Counted from the first letter of the stretch, positions 1,927 through 12,450 are shown. The stretch is DNA of 14,066 nucleotides from Leptolyngbya sp. (GCA_003249025.1 QBMH01000130.1:1-14066), one strand, 5' to 3'. Notes: generated by a model not told the origin, from the letters alone. Numbers and translations are program-made.

Positions 1927-3213
1927 TCAGGGCTGCCGAAAGATTCCAAAGACCGAGGTAAACCCATGCAGAAAGGTGGTGCTGCCAACGGGACCAATTT
2001 CACCATTGCAGAAAAACCCGCTCATAGGCAGATTGGGCAAGTAGCGACTGAACAAATGAGAATCAAAGTCAGGCTCATCATAAAGCCCCTCACCTCTTCC
2101 AGTGCAAGAAAACATTAAGGCTCCACTACCAGACAATGTATGAGCGGGATAGGTGGAAGTGTAGCGAAGCAGCAACGTTTCTAGATCTTCGGCAGACGCT
2201 TTGGCATCACGCAGATGAAACTGCACCCGTTGACCGGGGCGAATGCGATCGCCAATGGCGATCGCCCCTACTCTGGGATCAACTCCAATTAACTGCCGAA
2301 TTAAAAAATCCCCCTGTTCCAGGGTTTGCTTAAACTCACTTTGGGCAACGCCAATAAACAACGAGTGCTGCGCCAACTCGCGATCGTCCTCATCCAAGGT
2401 TTGAATTAGGTCTTGCAGTACCTCCAGCGGTGTCCCCTTCTGAGATACCCTTGCCCCGCCCCCAGCAGGCGCAAAACTCATATCTGCTTGATCCAGTGCC
2501 AGCATGATGTTTCGTTCACCCTCCGTCACCAAGTAAGGTTGACCAATGGGACGGCATCCCTGGGCAACGATCGCATCTAGCACAATGTTGCCGCTTAGTG
2601 CCACCCCAACCATCCCTTCTTGATGCAAGCGATCATCACAAAAAATTCCGCCAGAGTTGGTGATATTGCCGCTGATCAAGCCGCCAATTTTGGTAGATCC
2701 CGCATAGGCAAAATCCAGTCCTTGCAACAAGTCATTGAGTCGTCCAAAAGATGGGTCGCTCAGCAGCACAAACTGAGGTTGCTCAGCCGCAGGAATTCCG
2801 ATCACGTCTACCCAAGCCGTTGGCGAACTATCCAAATCGGGTAAGTCTTCGGGTAACAGATGAAACGTGTGAACGTGAACCTCTGGCAATGATGCGAGCA
2901 TTAAAGTCAGGGCAGGTTCTCCTTCTACTTCATGAGGATGCCCCTGATGATCCATGCCTGTAATTCCAGCACCGCCACATCCAATCAGCGGCACCCCTGG
3001 TAAATGCTCTTGTAGCAAGGGCATTAATCGCGAATATTCACTAGCAAAGGCAGACGAAATGAAAATCAATGCTAAGTCAGGTGAAGTTTGCAGCGCTGAT
3101 TTAGTCTGTTGCACCACCTCAGCGATCGCCGCTTCCAAAGAAGGACGGGTCGATAAAAAACTTGCCCACTTCATTTGTTTTACTTGCGGTTCTGCCATTG
3201 CAGTTTCCCCCAT
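1927..3213 (-). CDS. FIST (N + C) domain signal-transduction protein
   Basis: N-terminal FIST_N-like ...PDLALIFISSAFASEY...PLIGCGGAGITG. C-terminal FIST_C-like ...GALMFSCTGRG...GFFCNGEIGPVG. The start at 3213 is supported by AGGAGG (complement of 3222-3227) 8 nt upstream of the ATG. Confidence 0.75.
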   Translation of the reverse strand: MGETAMAEPQVKQMKWASFLSTRPSLEAAIAEVVQQTKSALQTSPDLALIFISSAFASEYSRLMPLLQEHLPGVPLIGCGGAGITGMDHQGHPHEVEGEPALTLMLASLPEVHVHTFHLLPEDLPDLDSSPTAWVDVIGIPAAEQPQFVLLSDPSFGRLNDLLQGLDFAYAGSTKIGGLISGNITNSGGIFCDDRLHQEGMVGVALSGNIVLDAIVAQGCRPIGQPYLVTEGERNIMLALDQADMSFAPAGGGARVSQKGTPLEVLQDLIQTLDEDDRELAQHSLFIGVAQSEFKQTLEQGDFLIRQLIGVDPRVGAIAIGDRIRPGQRVQFHLRDAKASAEDLETLLLRYTSTYPAHTLSGSGALMFSCTGRGEGLYDEPDFDSHLFSRYLPNLPMSGFFCNGEIGPVGSTTFLHGFTSVFGIFRQP

Positions 3214-3463
3214 TGGACTGACCTCCTAAAACTAGTATGGATTGTCAAAGTGCCTCTGTCTAAGGAATTTTTACTATTAATACAGTATTCTACGGAAACG
3301 CTACACGAACAAAATTCAAAACTGTTTTTTCCGAACCGTAGCATTGTGTGTTCATTCAGCTAAAACAGAGTACTTTGGAAGAAATCCTTTCAAGCTGGGC
3401 ATACTTGTCCAGCGTAGTCATAGTTGGCACGTTTGCGGCTATGGTCAACCTAGGAGCTTACTC

Positions 3464-5662
3464 ATGCAGACTACTGCACCGCCAAACCCAACCGAGTCTG
3501 CCCCACCTCGCCGCAGTTCAGGTTTTTCCATGTTGCGATCCGTCGGATCACGTCTGTTCCTTTCCGTGGTGGGTGGCTCCTTAATTGGTTTATTGGGCAC
3601 CACTTATTGGTCATACCGTGAACTTACCCGTCAGTCTGAAAACGAGTTGCTCTCAAATCTTCAGGTCAAAGCCGAAAGTTTGGAAGGCTCGTTTAATACG
3701 GTTGAATACTCCACTAAAACCGTCGCCGATGCCTTACAAAGCCTTTATATCGCGGGTGAAAGGCGGGAACAGGTTTACGTAGATCTGATGCGGCGATCGC
3801 TAAAAACCTCTCCCGTGGGTACAGGACTAGGATTTGGGCAACCTCCGACAAGTCGCTTAATTCTGCCAAGCCGTCAGTTTGCCTATCCCTACGCGGTGCG
3901 CGACAAAAGCGGTCAAATCACCTCCAAGGGTGGGGAAAGCGATCCGGGGGATTACCAAAAGCGTTACTTTACCGAGCCGATCGCCGCTGGCAAACCGGTT
4001 TGGCTAGAGCCAGAATCCTACATGGAAACGACGCTAAATCCACCGCAACAACTGGTTAGCACTGCCTATTCTCTGCCCTTCTATACTGACAAGCAGCAAC
4101 TACTTGGCGTGTTAAGCCAAGATTTAGAACTGGGCTTTTTAAGCCAAAAGCTCAGCGTACCCGCCATGCGAGATGCCGGCTACTTTGTTTTGGTCAGCGC
4201 CAAAGGCAACCTACTCGCCTATCCCCCCAATCCTCAAAAAGCCCTTGCTCTCACGCCCTTTCCCCAACTGAGTAACTATCAGGGGTTATGGGAAAAAATT
4301 CAAACGAATTTAGCGGCTGGCGAAAAAACGGGTGTACTGCGATGGAAAGATGACAGTGGCAAATCAGAATTTTGGGCGTATCAGCAAATTCCTAACAACA
4401 ATTGGATTTTGATGGCACAAGTTCCAGAATCAGTTGTGTTAGGTCCTGTATGGCGGTTTTTGGCAGCCGGAATTTTGGGAGCCGTGATTGGTGCTTCTAT
4501 TGTTCAAGGAGTGGTGGTGTTTTTGTTTGTGCGGCGGTTAAATCAGCGGTTGCAACCGATTATGGATGAGTGCAATCGCTTGGCAGAAATGAATGCGAAG
4601 AGTGAAGAACTGATGAACCGCGAGGATGAATTGGGACGGCTAACGATTTCCTTTTATGCCTTGCTGGGTCAGGTGACCGTAAATGAGCGACGCTTACGGA
4701 AAGAAACCGCAAAATCGGCGCAGGCACTTCAGGCATTGCAACAAACCCAAGCGCAACTCATTCAAACGGAAAAGATGTCTAGTTTGGGACAATTAGTTGC
4801 GGGGGTTGCCCACGAAATCAATAACCCCATTAACTTTATTTATGGTAATTTGCCTCACGCTTCGGAGTATGCCGAGGATTTGATGAATCTGGTCAAGCTT
4901 TACGATGCGACCTACACCAATCCTGACCCGGCGATCGCAAACTATCAACGAGCTATTGACCTAGACTTTTTGATGGAAGATCTGCCAAAAATGCTGGAGT
5001 CTATGAGCATTGGAGCCGATCGCATTCGAGAGATTGTGTTGTCCCTGCGAAACTTCTCTCGGTTAGACGAAGCCGAAATGAAGCGGGTCAACGTGCATGA
5101 AGGCATTGATAGCACCTTGCTAATTTTGCAAAATCGCTTGAAAGGCACCGCCGGACAGACCCCGATTGAAGTGGTCAAAGACTACGGAGAACTGCCTTTG
5201 GTGGAATGCTATGTTGGGCAGTTAAATCAAGTGTTTATGAATATCTTGAGCAACGCGATCGATGCCTTAGAGCAATACAACCGACAGCGATCGCGCGAAG
5301 AAATTGCTGCCAATCCATCCATCATCACAATTCGTACTGAAGCCATTTCCCAAGAAAACTCCGACTCTACTTCAAATTCCGCGCTCCGCTCTGGTGCTAA
5401 ATCAGTTCTGATCAGCATTCGCGATAATGGTTCGGGGATTCCTGCGGCAAACCAATCTCGTCTGTTTGACCCATTTTTTACAACGAAGCCCATTGGCAAA
5501 GGAACTGGATTAGGTTTATCGATCAGCTATCAGATTGTGGTCGAAAAACATAGCGGAATGCTCAAGTGCATTTCAGAGCCAGGGAACGGATCAGAATTTC
5601 AGATCGAGATTCCCATTGTGCAGGAAAACATGTCGTTGCCAGAAACTTCGCAGCCACACTAG
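3464..5662 (+). CDS. membrane sensor histidine kinase (extracytoplasmic Cache-like domain, coiled-coil linker, HisKA + HATPase_c)
   Basis: TM1 is LFLSVVGGSLIGLLGTTYWSY. It is followed by a ~290-aa extracytoplasmic region with Cache-like features, then TM2 FLAAGILGAVIGASIVQGVVVFLFV. H-box: VAGVAHEINNPINFIYGNL. N-box: NILSNAIDAL. G1: RDNGSGIP. G2: GKGTGLGLSISYQIV. I place the start at ATG 3464, which has AGGAG at 3452-3456 with a 7-nt spacer, rather than at the TTG at 3344 used by the ORF track. No response regulator lies in the window. Confidence 0.9.
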   Translation: MQTTAPPNPTESAPPRRSSGFSMLRSVGSRLFLSVVGGSLIGLLGTTYWSYRELTRQSENELLSNLQVKAESLEGSFNTVEYSTKTVADALQSLYIAGERREQVYVDLMRRSLKTSPVGTGLGFGQPPTSRLILPSRQFAYPYAVRDKSGQITSKGGESDPGDYQKRYFTEPIAAGKPVWLEPESYMETTLNPPQQLVSTAYSLPFYTDKQQLLGVLSQDLELGFLSQKLSVPAMRDAGYFVLVSAKGNLLAYPPNPQKALALTPFPQLSNYQGLWEKIQTNLAAGEKTGVLRWKDDSGKSEFWAYQQIPNNNWILMAQVPESVVLGPVWRFLAAGILGAVIGASIVQGVVVFLFVRRLNQRLQPIMDECNRLAEMNAKSEELMNREDELGRLTISFYALLGQVTVNERRLRKETAKSAQALQALQQTQAQLIQTEKMSSLGQLVAGVAHEINNPINFIYGNLPHASEYAEDLMNLVKLYDATYTNPDPAIANYQRAIDLDFLMEDLPKMLESMSIGADRIREIVLSLRNFSRLDEAEMKRVNVHEGIDSTLLILQNRLKGTAGQTPIEVVKDYGELPLVECYVGQLNQVFMNILSNAIDALEQYNRQRSREEIAANPSIITIRTEAISQENSDSTSNSALRSGAKSVLISIRDNGSGIPAANQSRLFDPFFTTKPIGKGTGLGLSISYQIVVEKHSGMLKCISEPGNGSEFQIEIPIVQENMSLPETSQPH

Positions 5663-5672
5663 TGGTCTATCA
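5662..5672. repeat. IS630 terminal inverted repeat (transposase 3' side)
   Basis: GTGGTCTATCA is the exact reverse complement of 6880-6890. The transposase stop codon (complement of 5670-5672) lies inside it. Confidence 0.85.
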
Positions 5673-6350
5673 GTTTTCTATTTGTGGGTAAAGGCGTTTG
5701 AGACGAATGCGGGCATCAGCGGTTGCAAATTGCCAATCTACCGATTTTTGCGCTTGATTGCGCTGAGTGTACCAAGCAGTTGTTTCTCGTTCCAATGTTT
5801 CACGATCTCGAATCCGACGGTCTAGGCATTGCCGAGTCAGAGCGGACAGTTCGTTCTCAGCGATATTGAGCCAACTTCCATGTTTGGGAGTGTGGTGAAT
5901 TTCCAATCGTTCTACTAGACGGCGGGCAACAGTCGCCGGAAAGGCTTGATAGAGTGAGGCAAGTTTGTGAGTGTTCAACTGGTCACACACCAGAATCACC
6001 GTTTCGCTATCCGCATACTCTTCATCGAGTAAGCGCCTGATTTCTCTTGCCCAGTCAACCGCTGTCCTACGTTCACTCACGACGGCTTTGCGCCATCCAG
6101 CCAAAGGTTCTGTGAACATGAAGATGTTGGCGGTTCCATTGCGTTCATATTCATAATCTACCGATTCTGGCTGTCCAGGTTTAGCTGGCAATGGCAACCG
6201 GGTTTCTTTGACTAACTGTACGGGTTGCTCATCCATACAGATCACAGGACGCTTGGGATTGTAAGACAAGTGATAAATCTCTAGCACGTCTGACCTGTGA
6301 GCCACAAATTCGGCACTCTGTTCAGGCGGAATCACATACATTTGCCGCAA
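5670..6350 (-). CDS. IS630-family transposase OrfB (DDE catalytic part, probably made only as an OrfAB fusion by -1 frameshift)
   Basis: ...LKPHLRQMYVIPPEQSAEFVAHRSDVLEIY...VICMDEQPVQL...VILVCDQLNTHK...HHTPKHGSWLNIAENELSAL... are IS630 DDE-region motifs. The listed start is a TTG with no independent initiation context. The frame stays open upstream through the A7 run. The joined product would be ~377 aa. Confidence 0.85.
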   Translation of the reverse strand: MRQMYVIPPEQSAEFVAHRSDVLEIYHLSYNPKRPVICMDEQPVQLVKETRLPLPAKPGQPESVDYEYERNGTANIFMFTEPLAGWRKAVVSERRTAVDWAREIRRLLDEEYADSETVILVCDQLNTHKLASLYQAFPATVARRLVERLEIHHTPKHGSWLNIAENELSALTRQCLDRRIRDRETLERETTAWYTQRNQAQKSVDWQFATADARIRLKRLYPQIEN

Positions 6351-6358
6351 ATGTGGTT

Positions 6359-6802
6359 TTAGTTTGTTTTTTTCAGCACTTGCCGCACGGTTTCATGAGA
6401 AATTGCTGGCACAATCGCTAACTCGACTGCTCGGTCAGCGAGTAACCGCAATGTCCAACGAGCCTGACCCGCAGGCGGTTGACCACACCGGAGGGCAATC
6501 AGTTTCGCTTCTGCCTCTCCATCACAGACCGGCAGACGGGGGGGTGTTTTGCGGGGTTTGCGTTCCAAAGCAGCCTCTAACCCCTGTTCAACCAATCTCT
6601 GCCGCAGGTTGGCGACTGTGTTGCGGTGGCAACTCATGGCACTTGCGGCTTCTTCGTCTGTCCATCCCTGTCCATTCACATCAATGTTCAACAGAAGGTT
6701 GGCGTGTTTGATTTTGTAGGCGGCGGCTTTACCGGTCGATACCAAGCTTTGGAGTTCCTGTCGTTCTGCCGAACTTAACCGGACGATATAACGTTTAGGC
6801 AT
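6359..6802 (-). CDS. IS630-family transposase OrfA (helix-turn-helix DNA-binding part)
   Basis: MPKRYIVRLSSAERQELQSLVSTGKAAAYKIKHANLLL...RWTLRLLADRAVELAIVPAISHETVRQVLKKTN is typical of the IS630/Tc1-like N-terminal HTH region. The ATG at 6802 is preferred over the ORF-track start at 6868. The ORF ends just after an A7 run. Confidence 0.85.
   Translation of the reverse strand: MPKRYIVRLSSAERQELQSLVSTGKAAAYKIKHANLLLNIDVNGQGWTDEEAASAMSCHRNTVANLRQRLVEQGLEAALERKPRKTPPRLPVCDGEAEAKLIALRCGQPPAGQARWTLRLLADRAVELAIVPAISHETVRQVLKKTN
6367..6373 (-). promoter_or_regulatory. A7 slippery run, candidate -1 frameshift site joining OrfA and OrfB
   Basis: The minus strand reads CTG AAA AAA ACA AAC TAA. A -1 slip on the A-run gives VLKK|NKLKPHLRQMYVIPPE, restoring the LKKN.LKP junction typical of single-ORF IS630 transposases. 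Confidence 0.5.
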
Positions 6803-6879
6803 CGCAAGTTCCTCGAATATGAGGAGTGGGTTACTGTAAATCACTCCTCCATTCTCCCTTAAACTCACAAGCTTAGGTT

Positions 6880-7066: not shown

Positions 7067-8851
7067 ATGCAGCAATTAGACCGTCAAGATTCCTCGATGC
7101 AGTCCCTTCAGCGGGTGCTGAAAAGTTTGAATGGATACCGTTGGCTGTCAATGGGCGCATTGTTTAGCCTATTGCTGTTGACGGCGGCAAATGCGGTGAC
7201 TCCGCAACTGTTTCGCTGGGGAATTGATCAAGGAATTGCCAAACAAGATTTGCAAATTGTGTTGTATAGCGCCGGGGCAATGGTGGTGACCGCGATCGCC
7301 CGTGGCGTGTTCAACTTTGGTCAGAGCTTTTGGGCAGAAGCCGCGTCTCAAGGGGTTGCCTATGATTTGAGAAATCGGATTTTTAGCAAAATTCAAACCC
7401 TCAGTTTTAGCTATCACGATCAGGCACAGACTTCGCAACTGCTAACCCGCGTCACTAGCGACATTGAGCAAATTCGCACGTTCTTAGGCACCAGCCTGAT
7501 TCAGGTACTTAGCTCCGTGGTGACGCTGGTGACGATAGCCGTGATTTTGCTAGTGATGAACTGGCAGCTAGCCTTGATTACGCTGACGGTTGTGCCCATG
7601 GCGGGTTGGCTATTAGCCCGATTTCTGACGCGCAACGGCAAACTGTTTCGCCAAGTGCAGGAACAATTGAGCGACCTGAATGCCATTTTGCAGGAGAATT
7701 TGCTGGGGGTGCGGGTGGTGAAAGCGTTTGTGCGGGAGTCTACCGAGGCGCAACGTTATACAGCGTTGAATGATGCGCTGGTGACGGCGAATATGAAAAC
7801 TATTCGGGCGATTCACAATACGTTTCCAGTGATTTTTTTGCTGAGTAATTTGGTCACCTTAGTGGTGTTTGGCTACGGTGGGGCGCAGGTGATTGGCGGC
7901 AATTTTTCCATTGGCGAACTGGTGGCGTTTAACTCCTATTTGCTGGTGATTTTGCAGCCGATTTTACTGATTGGCTTTGCAGCACCGGCGATCGCCCAGG
8001 CGGCGGCTTCTGCGGAACGGGTGTATGAAGTGGTGGATGCCAAGGTGGAAATTCGCGATCGCCCCGATGCGGTGCCGTTTGAAACCTGTAGCGGCAGAAT
8101 CACCTTTGAAAACGTGTCGTTTCGCTATCCAGGAGCCACAACCGAAGCGCTCAAGGGCGTGTCGTTTGAGACGAAACCCAAGGAACTAATCGCCGTGTTG
8201 GGCATGACGGCTTCGGGCAAAAGCACGATTATGAACCTGATTCCGCGCTTTTATGATGTGACCATAGGAGCCGTGCGGATTGATGGGCGGGATGTGCGAG
8301 ATTTGACCCTAGCAAGCTTGCGATCGCACATTGGCATTGTCTTTCAAGAAACGACGCTGTTTTCGGGCACCCTGCGGGAAAACATTGCCTACGCCAAACC
8401 CAACGCCACCCTAGAGCAGGTGATTGAAGCGGCAACCACGGCACAAATCCACGACTTTATTGCCGCCTTGCCCGATGGCTATGAAACCATTGTGGGAGAG
8501 CGCGGTGTGGGCTTATCGGGGGGACAAAAGCAGCGGGTGGCGATCGCCCGAACCCTATTGACCGACTACAGCATTCTGATTTTGGATGACAGCACCTCGG
8601 CGGTGGATGCCCAAACCGCATCCCAAATTCAGGCGGCACTGGATGATCTGATGCGCCGCCGCGCCTGCGTTACCTTCGTCGTTGCCCAACGCATCAGCAC
8701 CGTGCAAAACGCCGATCGCATTTTTCTAATGGACAAAGGACGCTTGATGGCACAGGGCACCCACGAAGAATTGATGCAAACCAGTCCGCTCTATGGCGCA
8801 ATTTTAGAATCGCAAGTGGCGCAAGTGCCGGAGCGATCACTGCCAAAATAG
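7067..8851 (+). CDS. ABC exporter half-transporter (TMD-NBD fusion) with degenerate-type NBD (TM287-like chain)
   Basis: About 300 aa of N-terminal type-I exporter TMD. Walker A: GMTASGKST. Signature: LSGGQKQRVAIAR. Walker B: ILILDD, with Asp (GAC 8588-8590) in place of the catalytic Glu. The H-loop reads VAQRIST, with Gln (CAA 8687-8689) in place of His. Confidence 0.9.
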   Translation: MQQLDRQDSSMQSLQRVLKSLNGYRWLSMGALFSLLLLTAANAVTPQLFRWGIDQGIAKQDLQIVLYSAGAMVVTAIARGVFNFGQSFWAEAASQGVAYDLRNRIFSKIQTLSFSYHDQAQTSQLLTRVTSDIEQIRTFLGTSLIQVLSSVVTLVTIAVILLVMNWQLALITLTVVPMAGWLLARFLTRNGKLFRQVQEQLSDLNAILQENLLGVRVVKAFVRESTEAQRYTALNDALVTANMKTIRAIHNTFPVIFLLSNLVTLVVFGYGGAQVIGGNFSIGELVAFNSYLLVILQPILLIGFAAPAIAQAAASAERVYEVVDAKVEIRDRPDAVPFETCSGRITFENVSFRYPGATTEALKGVSFETKPKELIAVLGMTASGKSTIMNLIPRFYDVTIGAVRIDGRDVRDLTLASLRSHIGIVFQETTLFSGTLRENIAYAKPNATLEQVIEAATTAQIHDFIAALPDGYETIVGERGVGLSGGQKQRVAIARTLLTDYSILILDDSTSAVDAQTASQIQAALDDLMRRRACVTFVVAQRISTVQNADRIFLMDKGRLMAQGTHEELMQTSPLYGAILESQVAQVPERSLPK

Positions 8852-8923
8852 GTGTGAAGTTTCCCGAAGCCATGGGAATTCTTTTGGTAGAAAAGATATA
8901 GTCCCAACTCTCAAATCGCCCCA

Positions 8924-9418
8924 ATGACCAACAATCGCCTGCATCAAATTGAGGACCACTTAAACCTACTACGAGAGCAGCAAGCCTCTTTGGAACGAGA
9001 AGCTTTGCTGACAACAGGATTGCCAAAAACGCAAGCAGAGCAGCGATTGCGGCTAGAAATTAAGCCAAAAATTCGTGACTATGAGCAAGAGTATTGGCAG
9101 ATTTTAGCCGAGAATGCCAACCAGCTAAACATTCCTGAACCAAAGGCTGAAGTAATTGTGGCAGAGCTTGTCGAATCAGTGGGTCGGCTGGAGGTGCAGC
9201 AAGACTATTCGGCTGAAATGATGCAGGTTTTGTTGGAATTGCGGGACAAATTGAACCAACCGCAAGCTCCGGCAGCCATTAAGGTGAAATGGGCGTTGTC
9301 AGCAATTCCACCCTTTGTGAGTTTGGCAACGGAAGGCGAGTTAGATATAGAGAAGTTTTTGCAAACGAATTTTCCGACGTTTAGAAACTGGTCTAAGGTG
9401 CTGGCAAAAAAGTTGTAG
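8924..9418 (+). CDS. 164-aa hypothetical protein, probable N-terminal module of the downstream NB-ARC NTPase
   Basis: ATG at 8924. The first ~75 aa are highly charged and heptad-like (LNLLREQQASLEREALL...AEQRLRLEIKPKIRDYEQEYWQIL). They are followed by a helical/hydrophobic segment (AAIKVKWALSAIPPFVSLATEGEL). No known effector domain recognised. The ORF ends ...GCA AAA AAG TTG TAG, inside the frameshift cassette. Confidence 0.65.
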   Translation: MTNNRLHQIEDHLNLLREQQASLEREALLTTGLPKTQAEQRLRLEIKPKIRDYEQEYWQILAENANQLNIPEPKAEVIVAELVESVGRLEVQQDYSAEMMQVLLELRDKLNQPQAPAAIKVKWALSAIPPFVSLATEGELDIEKFLQTNFPTFRNWSKVLAKKL

Positions 9419-9455
9419 ACCACGATCGCCCACCCGATAGAACTGATCGTGGTCT
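9406..9455 (+). promoter_or_regulatory. candidate -1 programmed ribosomal frameshift cassette (A_AAA_AAG heptamer plus hairpin)
   Basis: The heptamer at 9406-9412 is in X_XXY_YYZ phase of the 8924 frame. After a 4-nt spacer comes a perfect 11-bp stem, AGACCACGATC (9417-9427) with GATCGTGGTCT (9445-9455), and a 17-nt loop. No U-tract follows. The -1 frame is open from 9397 through 10656. Confidence 0.5.
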
Positions 9456-9513
9456 GCCCAAATTTCAGGTTCCCTATCACCGGAATCAACACTTCACCGG
9501 GCGATCGCAACTG

Positions 9514-10656
9514 TTGCAAGATCTGCATACTGCACTCACGTCCACAGGCAAAGCCGCGCTCAATCAAGCAGCAGCACTCAGCGGATTGGGCGGAATTGGC
9601 AAAACCCAAACCGCCGTGGAGTATGCCTATCGCTATTTCTACGACACTCCCACCTATGAGTGGGTATTTTGGGTCAAGGCAGACACGGAATTAGCCCTGG
9701 TCACGGACTTGGCAGCGATCGCCCGATCGCTCGATTTGGGTGATGGCACCTTGGAAGAATTGGCAACGCGATCGCAGCAGTGGTTGAAGACTCATCAGGG
9801 CTGGTTGCTGATTTTTGATAACGCGGATCAGCCGGAAATTGTGAAACCCTGGTTGCCGCGCAATCCTCAGGGACGTGTATTGCTCACGTCACGGGCACCA
9901 CGATTTACCAGCCTGGGCATTAAAGCCCTGATCGCGGTGAAAAAATTCTCACTAGAAGAGTCGATCGCCTTTTTGCGCGATCGCGTAGCGTCTCCACAGG
10001 AGAATCGCACCGATCACCCTGAACTGGATGCCGCTGAACTCGCCGCCGTCACCGCCCTAGCTCAAGAATTAGACGGATTGCCGCTGGCATTGGAGCAAGC
10101 CGCTGCCTATATTGCCCAGATGGTCGTATCGTTTGCGGTGTATTGGCGCTACTACCAGCAGCAGCGTTTGGTCTTGCTAGAGAAAGGCTTACCCGAAACC
10201 GGAGACTATCCCCAATCCGTCGCCACTACCTGGCTATTGAACTTTGAGGAAGTGGAACAGCGATCGCCTGCCTCGGTGCCAATTTTGCAATTGAGCGCCG
10301 TGTTAGCCGCCGATGACATTCATGAACACCTATTGCTCGTATGTGCTGAGGAATTTGGCTTGCTAGCCTGCACCGATGAGTTGGCGCTAGCCGAGCAGTT
10401 AGCAGCCCTAGCAGATTTTTCCCTGATTCAGCGGGAGCGAGCCACAGCAAGCTACAGCATTCACCGCATGGTGCAGGCAGTCATCTGGCAGCGGTTGAGC
10501 GAAGCTGAACAGCAGACTTGGATAGAGCGTACCATCACTGGATTAAATGCCGCCTTTCCTGATGTGACGAAGTTTGAAAACTGGCAAATCTGTGGATATC
10601 TGGTGCGCCATGTGCAGGCGATCGCCCCTAGCCCTACCCAGATCTTTGGCTTCTAG
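9514..10656 (+). CDS. NB-ARC (STAND) P-loop NTPase, lacking both its own N-terminus and a C-terminal repeat sensor
   Basis: Walker A: GLGGIGKT (9583-9606). Walker B: WLLIFDNAD (9802-9828). RNBS-B-like: VLLTSR. Canonical GLPLAL (10075-10092) followed by EQAAAYI. The TTG at 9514 is the first possible start, but the frame is open back to 9397 and encodes conserved-looking LPKFQVPYHRNQHFTGRSQLLQDLH upstream of it. The true N-terminus is therefore probably supplied by frameshift from 8924-9412. May be annotated as a pseudogene. Confidence 0.8.
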   Translation: MQDLHTALTSTGKAALNQAAALSGLGGIGKTQTAVEYAYRYFYDTPTYEWVFWVKADTELALVTDLAAIARSLDLGDGTLEELATRSQQWLKTHQGWLLIFDNADQPEIVKPWLPRNPQGRVLLTSRAPRFTSLGIKALIAVKKFSLEESIAFLRDRVASPQENRTDHPELDAAELAAVTALAQELDGLPLALEQAAAYIAQMVVSFAVYWRYYQQQRLVLLEKGLPETGDYPQSVATTWLLNFEEVEQRSPASVPILQLSAVLAADDIHEHLLLVCAEEFGLLACTDELALAEQLAALADFSLIQRERATASYSIHRMVQAVIWQRLSEAEQQTWIERTITGLNAAFPDVTKFENWQICGYLVRHVQAIAPSPTQIFGF

Positions 10657-10689
10657 TTCATCTGCTGATTTACCCCTTGCCATCTCATA

Positions 10690-12450
10690 TCATCGCAATT
10701 GCTTGAATAAATCCATCAGTTTACGCTTGCGGGCATGAATGGACTGGAGTTGATTGAAATATGCCGTCCACGTTGATTGTTGCCCTGAGTGCAGGTAGGC
10801 AGCTTTGGCGTGTTTTAGCCATTGCACTGCTTCGTGGTAGCGATCGGCTTTGCCTTGCTCCATAATCGGTTCTGCCCGTTGACGAGCCGCTGCAATCACC
10901 CAATCGGAATGAGTGGCTACCACGGCTTGCATGACGCGATGCACCAACTCGGAGCGGTAGTAGGTGTCAGTTTGCACGGCTGCGATCGCATCATCCAGCA
11001 ACCCTTCATGCAGAAAAATATCAACCTTTGCATCCCTCGCTGCCCATTCCTGCGTCTGGCGTAGAATTTCCAGCAACTCTGGTTTAATGTCGTTCCACTG
11101 GTGAGCCGCGAAATGCGCCACTCGTTGATAGTCTGCAAAACTAGGACGCAGTTTGAAGGCAAGAATGCTGGCATCTAGAGCGATTTCGGAGTTTCCTAAC
11201 CCTTCTGCCAGTTCACTTGTCCAACTTGCCAGAGTATACCGACAATTTCCAGGTAAAGGCAGTCCAAGCTGAGCAATCGCCAACGCCTCAGATAAATGAT
11301 TGCTTTCTCGTAAGGTTTTTGCCAGGGCAAACGCTTCTTCAGCCGTGGTCATGCGCGATCGGGCTGTGGTCATCGCTTCCTCAATGTTGCCGATCTCCGC
11401 CAATCGCGTCAGATACTGCACCATTAATCCTTCTGTTTTGGCTAAGTTCAAGTACTCAGCCTGCTGTCCCTGCCGATCCAATATTTGCAGCCGAACCAAT
11501 GCCAGATCTTGACCGCAGGGTGAATTTAACCGCTCTGGATCGGAATAATGCCCGCCTTGCAATGCTTGCTGTAAGTCTGGATCAGTCCACCCCTGCTGCA
11601 ATGCCGCTAGGCTCATCGAAAAATCCCCGTCTAGGGCATCCTGCCATTCTTCTAACATCAAGCGCAGATCGACGGCTTCAGGTGGCGAAAGATCGATGCT
11701 GAGAACCGCTTCTGTCCAGGCTTCGTTGAGCGACTCGACAATTGGAAAAGAATCTCCCCCATAATCGCTGATGTCGTCCCATTCATCGACACAAGCAGCA
11801 GTAATCGCCTCTAGAATTGCGATCGCGCTAGTCCCATCTTCATTCCTGGCAAATGCTAAAGCTTTCTCAATGATTTCCAGCAATTGATCGGTAAACGGAT
11901 CATCCTCATAGCCTTCCTCCAGCGATCGCACGCCTTCTCGCAAAATATGTCTCACCTGCCGCCGAAACGGAGCTACATCAATTGCGGTACGACGGCGGGG
12001 CACAGCCACTTGCGCCGCTGGAGCCGGGTTCGACATCAGCATCACCTGGAGATCGACTGCCTCGATCAGTTCCGGTTGCTCTTTGACCAATGCTTGCACT
12101 AATCGTTGGGTTTGCACGTGATCGAGGCGATCAAGCAATTGGGGCAGCGTTGGTCGCACTTCAACGCGATCGGGTTGCCGCACCCAAGCCAGTGCTGCTG
12201 CCACAATATGTTTACACCAGCCTTCATAGTCATAAGGGCAGGTACAGCCAGCCGAAGTAATACCCCCAGAATCAAACTGGAGACTGACGCGGTAAGGAGT
12301 TACTTCACTGCCCTCCACGTCTGCATAGATCGTGTTGCCTCGTTGCACCAGATCGGCGACGGCTCCTTGCTGGTAATAGGCTTCTCCCCGGCTAAAGGAA
12401 TTGCTCGTTGCCTGATGCTGAATGGTTGTTATCGAAATTGGTGCTGTCAT
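10690..12450 (-). CDS. SWIM zinc-finger domain protein with long alpha-helical C-terminal region
   Basis: The N-terminal region ...YRVSLQFDSGGITSAGCTCPYDYEGWCKHIVAAALAW carries the CxCx7CxH SWIM signature (C69, C71, C79, H81; nt 12208-12246). The remaining ~480 aa are helical and repeat-like. Several HIP1 sites lie inside it, so it looks resident. Confidence 0.8.
   Translation of the reverse strand: MTAPISITTIQHQATSNSFSRGEAYYQQGAVADLVQRGNTIYADVEGSEVTPYRVSLQFDSGGITSAGCTCPYDYEGWCKHIVAAALAWVRQPDRVEVRPTLPQLLDRLDHVQTQRLVQALVKEQPELIEAVDLQVMLMSNPAPAAQVAVPRRRTAIDVAPFRRQVRHILREGVRSLEEGYEDDPFTDQLLEIIEKALAFARNEDGTSAIAILEAITAACVDEWDDISDYGGDSFPIVESLNEAWTEAVLSIDLSPPEAVDLRLMLEEWQDALDGDFSMSLAALQQGWTDPDLQQALQGGHYSDPERLNSPCGQDLALVRLQILDRQGQQAEYLNLAKTEGLMVQYLTRLAEIGNIEEAMTTARSRMTTAEEAFALAKTLRESNHLSEALAIAQLGLPLPGNCRYTLASWTSELAEGLGNSEIALDASILAFKLRPSFADYQRVAHFAAHQWNDIKPELLEILRQTQEWAARDAKVDIFLHEGLLDDAIAAVQTDTYYRSELVHRVMQAVVATHSDWVIAAARQRAEPIMEQGKADRYHEAVQWLKHAKAAYLHSGQQSTWTAYFNQLQSIHARKRKLMDLFKQLR

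Follow-up and report, generated by a model that had tools for sequence, protein, structure and literature searches.

The window analysed here, 14,066 nucleotides (nt) of a metagenome-assembled genome (MAG) of Leptolyngbya sp. (GCA_003249025.1 QBMH01000130.1:1-14066; positions are counted on the whole stretch), carries on its plus strand a gene for a 164-residue protein, the N-module (8924-9418; GenBank DCF22_16080), followed in the -1 frame by an open reading frame (ORF; 9412-10656, also plus strand) for an NB-ARC NTPase of the STAND type. A programmed -1 ribosomal frameshift of the OrfA/OrfAB type very probably joins the two, judging from the reading frames and from their conservation in relatives. 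The copy in the window would then belong to a portable cassette of module and slip site, which is widespread in cyanobacteria and stands before many unrelated sensor and signalling proteins, mostly STAND NTPases.

The module gene ends GCA AAA AAG TTG TAG. Within this the slippery heptamer A_AAA_AAG (9406-9412, plus strand) lies in X_XXY_YYZ phase, one codon ahead of the zero-frame stop TAG (9416-9418). The -1 frame is shut by a TAA (9394-9396) located 9 nt 5' of the heptamer, and from 9397 it is open up to its own stop at 10654-10656. Counted from 9412 it has 414 codons plus the stop and encodes a linker, an NB-ARC domain and a winged-helix DUF7779 domain, with the Walker A motif GLGGIGKT at 9583-9606. 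Its first ATG, GTG or TTG codon is the TTG at 9514. The GenBank entry for the NTPase (DCF22_16085; P0205, 400 residues) begins at a CTG at 9454, which is within the 3' arm of a 14-bp stem-loop (9415-9457; arms 9415-9428 and 9444-9457, 15-nt loop) that is likely to act as the frameshift stimulator and has the TAG at its base. A slip at the heptamer would join 163 residues of the module to 414 from the -1 frame, a predicted trans-frame product of 577 residues, in agreement with the ~577 residues given in a preliminary description of this DNA. That description had also recorded the phase of the heptamer closing the 8924-9418 ORF, the TAA followed by an open frame to 10656, the want of an ATG, GTG or TTG before 9514 and the TAG at the stem base, and its sequence statements proved correct on re-checking. 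Its perfect 11-bp stem (9417-9427 with 9445-9455) stands, and the extended stem is longer than the 13 bp given there, reaching 14 bp. It had taken the stem not to be a terminator, and indeed no U-tract follows it and no plus-strand terminator is predicted there.

Comparison with orthologous loci, as the preliminary description had proposed, shows that the heptamer, the hairpin and the two-frame layout are conserved. We analysed 83 loci in total, with 80 taken from species-representative cyanobacterial genomes. An in-phase A-rich heptamer (NNA-AAA-AAR/N) is found near the end of the module ORF in 71 of the 83 (70 plus L035, which was found later); the 70 consist of A_AAA_AAG (50), A_AAA_AAA (15), AAC-ending (three) and AAT-ending (two) sites. 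Codon usage alone predicts ~18% heptamers, and the observed excess has a binomial p of 1e-40, although many of the loci are related (especially those of Microcoleus) and this and the later p-values ignore relatedness and so overstate independence. The stop comes 0-3 codons past the heptamer in nearly all loci, with two outliers at 8 and 12 codons, and the 9-nt distance from TAA to heptamer is identical in 34/70. From the heptamer onwards the -1 frame has a median open length of 698 codons and extends to 200 or more in 62/70 loci, or 63 loci when all 71 are counted, compared with a median of 8 codons for the +1 frame, which never reaches 200. From this layout we infer that ribosomes slip at the heptamer.

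An indel or assembly error in the A6 tract, a caveat already raised in the preliminary description, or a frameshift in the pseudogene of a once-single ORF would give the same picture in a single sequence: homopolymers are prone to error, the window derives from a MAG, and an A7 tract, which L015 among the relatives does carry, would make the ORF continuous. However, some 50 independent assemblies, finished chromosomes and a finished plasmid among them, share this A6G tract and its frame relation; the A6 junction is seen, for example, in Geitlerinema PCC 7407 and in a plasmid of Crinalium PCC 9333, both finished sequences. The -1 ORFs are intact over 400-1050 codons. In addition, using the junction-spanning predicted protein as the query returned 55 homologues (41-99% identity), nearly all of 159-175 residues, and none of them runs on into an NTPase, so that the uniformly single ORF named in the preliminary description as the mark of a pseudogene or error was found in 0/55. 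An error or pseudogene is thus extremely improbable.

The module and the NTPase might alternatively be two ordinary adjacent genes, the second started at CTG 9454 or TTG 9514, perhaps by termination-reinitiation, with the heptamer serving as the codons of an AKK peptide. That peptide is itself conserved, almost all of the 55 homologues ending in AKK plus 0-2 residues, but its synonymous codons are fixed in a manner that other codons of the module are not. In all 68 non-redundant heptamer loci AAA is the P-site codon; the A site has AAG in 49 of them and AAA in 15, and the codon before the AAA always ends in A (GCA 36, AAA 16, CTA 7 and others). The invariant lysines elsewhere are mixed (K120, AAG 33 and AAA 31; K122, AAA 46 and AAG 18), and GCA accounts for 36/36 Ala codons at the slip site versus 32% of the Ala codons elsewhere in the ORFs. 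The conservation therefore exceeds what the amino acids require. Copies of the module that are SNF2-linked or orphan, with no downstream ORF in any frame, retain the peptide as AKK, AKR or ARK, yet their heptamer has decayed (GCG AAA AAG, GCC AAA AAA, AAA AGG, AGA AAA and GAA AAC); the association between the heptamer and a long -1 ORF has a Fisher p of 5e-7. It is also always the -1 frame that is open, opening just 5' of the heptamer.

The positions of the start codons bear on the same alternative. In the output of gene callers and in RefSeq the two are separate genes, started internally, and the Microcoleus group offers an ATG 37 codons past the heptamer, as two independent genes would. The called starts nevertheless cut into conserved motifs, in one case beginning at a Met inside the P-loop (GMGGIGKT), and the RefSeq start of the NACHT gene on the Crinalium plasmid is 56 codons past the slip site. 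In many NB-ARC loci, that of the window included, the pre-P-loop motif F[VT]GR..L..LH lies 5' of the first possible start, as had been claimed for the segment ahead of the Walker A motif in the window, and the Nostocales nSTAND4 group lacks any ATG, GTG or TTG over ~87 codons or more ahead of the P-loop. The earlier contention that the NTPase ORF is incomplete alone is thus borne out by conserved motifs 5' of the start codons in many loci, and on these reading frames recoding is predicted to be necessary for a complete downstream protein. Wherever the neighbourhood can be read, the module gene is followed by a same-strand NB-ARC-TPR or NACHT gene, in differing chromosomal contexts. Since length variants of the A-run (A7 and A10, described below) also give in-frame fusions, we consider two ordinary genes very improbable. 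The window-type NTPase family is systematically mis-annotated, its members being started at CTG or at internal ATG or GTG codons, or left uncalled.

The slip site is accompanied by elements that may stimulate it. The stem in the window has a folding free energy (dG) of -22.3 kcal/mol (z = -3.6), and 0/200 shuffled sequences fold as well. Hairpins starting 0-9 nt past A_AAA_AAG have a median dG of -12.0, and control windows from these loci one of -7.4 (p = 5e-7); 67% of the hairpins are at or below -10, compared with 30% of the controls; sites with A-runs have weak downstream structures. The stem sequences are unrelated across subfamilies while their position is kept. In a sister subfamily to that of the window the stem has 9 bp, five of them with compensatory double changes, and 94% of its cells are paired, compared with 83% when shuffled (0/500 reach the observed value) and 42-57% with the partner arm slid. 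For the family as a whole, the enrichment at a set position and this covariation favour a functional stem. Upstream, an SD-like (Shine-Dalgarno-like) AAGGTG (9395-9400; plus strand, anti-SD duplex dG of -6.4) located 5 nt 5' of the heptamer is a possible further stimulator. For the family this upstream signal has a median of -5.1 versus -2.7 kcal/mol in control windows (p = 2e-10), and in the Pseudanabaena/Merismopedia-type subfamily an almost perfect AAGGAGG lies 12 nt ahead of the site, completing a full three-part signal of the dnaX type. A_AAA_AAG is among the most efficient -1 motifs in Escherichia coli when a stimulator is present, with ~0.3% shifting without one (PMC4066793). No Rfam family was found at the window junction. 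The hairpin was also considered as a mere pair of HIP1-like CGATCG sites and this was rejected: the outer part of the stem (AGACCA/TGGTCT) does not match HIP1, and unrelated stems occur at the same position in other subfamilies.

A fusion could also come from slippage during transcription, if RNA polymerase put an extra A into the run. The Nostocales loci L047, L053-L055 and L060-L064 have A9 runs (AAAAAAAAAC) or A9G, their hairpins being weak or absent, and at L049 an A10 where the relatives have A9 produces an in-frame fusion; this pattern suggests transcriptional slippage, or phase variation at the DNA level, in that lineage. The runs resemble the A9 slippage of Thermus thermophilus dnaX (cited in PMC3711429), with the same -1 outcome and no hairpin, although the gene family is unrelated and the comparison is not applicable to the A6 tract of the window. 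Transcriptional slippage is plausible for the A9-A10 subfamilies, which probably reach the same outcome by this route. For A6 it is unlikely: in the window and 50 other loci the run is no longer than A6, and a codon-phased heptamer, a nearby stop, a covarying hairpin at a set position and an SD-like element matter to ribosomes and not to RNA polymerase. We therefore hold slippage by the polymerase to be an improbable explanation of the window, and a ribosomal slip to be the better one. An A7 tract is found in L015 (4480-4560), where the relatives have A6; it reads GCA AAA AAA GTC GTA GAC and the module continues in frame to TPR repeats, the NB-ARC domain being absent. L088 (4470-4495) groups with the Nostocales A9-run loci. 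Two further loci have a small upstream ORF and an NTPase in the same frame, separated by a single TAG in L052 (~4445-4520) and by a single TGA in L090 (925-1560; ..GATPND-stop-LEPPGRERVKLNTPKFQVPYQRNPHFTGRS..), a layout that could reflect stop-codon readthrough or a plain nonsense mutation.

Several observations weigh against programmed frameshifting, mostly in the copy of the window itself. Its stem begins just 2-4 nt past the heptamer, where 5-9 nt is usual, so the short spacer conceded in the preliminary description remains a valid objection; its AAGGTG is weaker than the AAGGAGG mentioned above, its distance of 5 nt from the heptamer is short of the 10-14 nt in dnaX, and its role is uncertain. 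A crude comparison of the minimum free energy of the 60 nt past the heptamer with control windows was not significant (p = 0.12), and the position-anchored hairpin metric given above was used in its place. The relatedness of the loci, already mentioned, tempers all of the family statistics. Lastly, and absent from the preliminary description, the NTPase ORF of the window ends at 10656 before any TPR, at the point where the TPR_10/TPR_12 sensor array of its relatives starts, and the copy may be decaying and no longer fully functional.

This last point calls for a closer description of the NTPase. The -1 ORF matches PF00931 (NB-ARC; 32 bits, cut-off 23.5) and PF25000 (DUF7779), contains the motifs GLGGIGKT and LLIFDNAD and spans positions 3-373 of the 830 of NCBIfam FxSxx_TPR. 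Its closest relatives (70-87% identity) have 450-720 residues and include TPRs. A convergent gene for a SWIM zinc-finger protein (586 residues; 10690-12450, minus strand) ends 33 nt from the NTPase ORF. This implies that a deletion or rearrangement at 10560-10690 would have taken away the TPR sensor. Because the ORF ends where the TPR arrays of the relatives start, the window copy is best regarded as a 3'-truncated instance, possibly in decay; within this NTPase subfamily, L089 carries the cassette and is full-length. In L010, a near relative of the window NTPase, the TPRs are kept in another frame, with a second frame break (3007-3411) between the NB-ARC/winged-helix region and the TPR array, which may be an error (a low-coverage MAG, 3.8x) or a pseudogene. 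The cassette in the window might accordingly be a relic in which the signal is intact and the sensor has been lost by 3' deletion, leaving a product without function. The end of the ORF at the TPR start, the abutting SWIM gene, the longer TPR-bearing relatives and the presence of an IS630 element nearby all favour this. Nevertheless, the N-module, slip site, hairpin, Walker A motif and NB-ARC/winged-helix region are intact and the 414 codons have no internal stop, which points to a recent event or to function still being retained. We consider a functionless relic somewhat unlikely, and it overlaps with the frameshift explanation.

The 164-residue ORF is a conserved, stand-alone, all-alpha family of cyanobacteria that lacks a Pfam model. 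A profile search of 1.84 billion representatives gave 297 members (at 50% clustering), mostly of ~165 residues. The N-module of the window has no match in Pfam, NCBIfam or PADLOC, and a phage collection searched with the module gave no match. The AlphaFold2 model is all-alpha (predicted local distance difference test score of 88, predicted template-modelling score of 0.78), with seven helices and a long N-terminal hairpin; a Foldseek search of the PDB with this model found no significant neighbour (best E = 1.2). In distant relatives the module is in frame on nSTAND1 (P0098), NB-ARC-like+TPR (P0204), TIR (P0184) and TRADD-like_N (P0056) proteins, and other in-frame carriers among the distant family members are TPR, PBP and GUN4 proteins. 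Because in-frame variants and distant in-frame fusions exist, the module joined to an NTPase is a real protein architecture. In relatives further removed from the window NTPase, an in-frame TIR or SEFIR domain occupies the same N-terminal slot. In L029, L031, L033, L050 and P0063 the module is the C-terminal domain of SNF2-family helicase ORFs (~890 residues in L029, L031, L033 and L050). A second small module without a Pfam model (~150 residues; MLETIPLLLATPIAKVILDKFYEG...) was seen in L090 (925-1380) and in P0008 (residues 1-143); in L090 it stands alone 5' of a window-type NTPase and in P0008 it is fused ahead of the N-module.

The partners in the -1 frame include NB-ARC-TPR, NACHT, NACHT-TPR and nSTAND3/4 proteins, and also a dynamin-like GTPase, WD40, TPR-only, transmembrane (TM)+FGE, Ig-like/PPC and small TM proteins; as a rule their ORFs offer no start codon ahead of the conserved motifs or the P-loop. 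The OrfA/OrfAB-type shift of the preliminary description is supported by conservation in relatives, with the correction that the cassette is not specific to NB-ARC, since many kinds of protein lie downstream. The nSTAND4-type partners are related to NCBIfam DS8_antiphage and PADLOC PDC-S60, only from profile positions ~186-295 onward. The histories of module and partner disagree. The modules of the window and L001 are 80% identical and their NTPases only 32%; in the other direction, the NTPases of L007 and L010 are 86% and 79% identical to that of the window and their modules only 69% and 63%. Among module pairs that are at least 60% identical, the partners are <35% identical or unalignable in 63/248. 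Copies of the cassette are also found on two mobilizable plasmids. Shuffling of the cassette among unrelated partners suggests a junction that is friendly to recombination and that may help conflict systems to diversify.

We propose that most ribosomes would stop at the TAG and release the free 164-residue all-alpha module, and that some, aided by the stem, by the stop next to the heptamer and perhaps by the SD-like element, would move back one base at the two Lys codons and read on through the -1 ORF, making the 577-residue module-NB-ARC fusion. The amounts of free and sensor-tethered module would then stand in a constant ratio determined by the efficiency of the shift. The module may act as an effector-associated adaptor or as an effector domain; a role of the two-product ratio in homotypic recruitment or in regulation is speculative. 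In a broader form of this proposal the cassette would be a plug-in 5' end for bacterial NLR-like sensors and further signalling proteins, in which tethered copies, oligomerized upon activation, recruit or nucleate free copies, a one-gene bacterial counterpart of NLRP3/ASC or NWD2/HET-S, with sister lineages reaching the same end through transcriptional slippage (A9) or possibly readthrough (L052 and L090). We put this forward tentatively and consider it on balance doubtful. If the frameshift is real, many cyanobacterial NLR-like proteins are mis-annotated (with short N-termini, as pseudogenes or uncalled), these sensors carry an N-terminal domain hidden from ordinary gene calling, and recoding could set the ratio of the free adaptor or effector to its sensor-bound form.

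To our knowledge, conserved programmed frameshifting is rare in bacterial genes that are neither mobile nor of phage origin. The known cases of this kind include dnaX, copA and csoS2. The cassette resembles the E. coli dnaX tau/gamma signal in its A_AAA_AAG, downstream stem-loop and upstream SD-like element (PMC3711429), but the proteins are unrelated, and in dnaX the shift leads to an early stop and a shorter product, whereas here it would add 400-1050 residues. The OrfA/OrfAB arrangement of IS3/IS911 and IS630 is similar in having a small zero-frame protein, a -1 fusion to a large start-less catalytic ORF and an A_AAA_AAG with structure; the downstream ORFs of the cassette differ in lacking a DDE domain, with NB-ARC, NACHT and others instead, and its upstream module is swapped between unrelated downstream genes. 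Lambda G/GT and CsoS2A/B likewise have a conserved -1 shift giving two nested products in a fixed ratio, in non-mobile or structural genes (the alpha-carboxysome case is covered in the review by Atkins et al., 2016; PMC5009743), but their slip sites, proteins and biology are different and neither has NTPase sensors. In its partners (STAND NTPases, TIR and TRADD-N) the module behaves as described for the effector-associated domains (EADs; Kaur et al., 2020; PMC7159879). These are small non-enzymatic domains at the N-termini of STAND and other NTPases; they also occur in fusions with effectors, TIR and TRADD-N for instance, and are enriched in multicellular bacteria. EADs are coupled through two genes that each have a copy, whereas the cassette gene would supply both by recoding. 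No Pfam model of the described EAD families matches the module, and the EAD paper (PMC7159879) makes no mention of frameshifting. The literature covered included the GeneTack paper (Antonov, 2013) with its supplements, Atkins et al. (2016), the EAD paper, work from 2026 on RNA structures of cyanobacteria and a 2026 Nature paper on STAND proteins; in the searchable literature, with subscription journals and the GeneTack database itself outside its scope, no account was found of frameshifting in this family or, more widely, in STAND/NB-ARC proteins. The mechanism is of a known kind, and what is apparently undescribed is that NLR-like/STAND systems use it and that module and slip site form a portable unit.

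The remaining features of the window are upstream of the module gene. An ABC transporter gene (7067-8851) precedes it, with a terminator-like hairpin (8861-8878) between the two. This gene is syntenic with Leptolyngbya sp. Cla-17 (L003/L008), where, despite the synteny, the NTPase behind the module is of another type, ~32% identical over the aligned part; in L003 no gene is called across ~1.9 kb of the NTPase region. Further upstream is a separate IS630-family element (5670-6868, minus strand) with a helix-turn-helix ORF of 169 residues and a DDE_3 ORF of 226 residues. Its OrfA ends CTG AAA AAA ACA AAC TAA, with an A7 run at 6367-6373 and OrfB in the -1 frame, a classic slip site.

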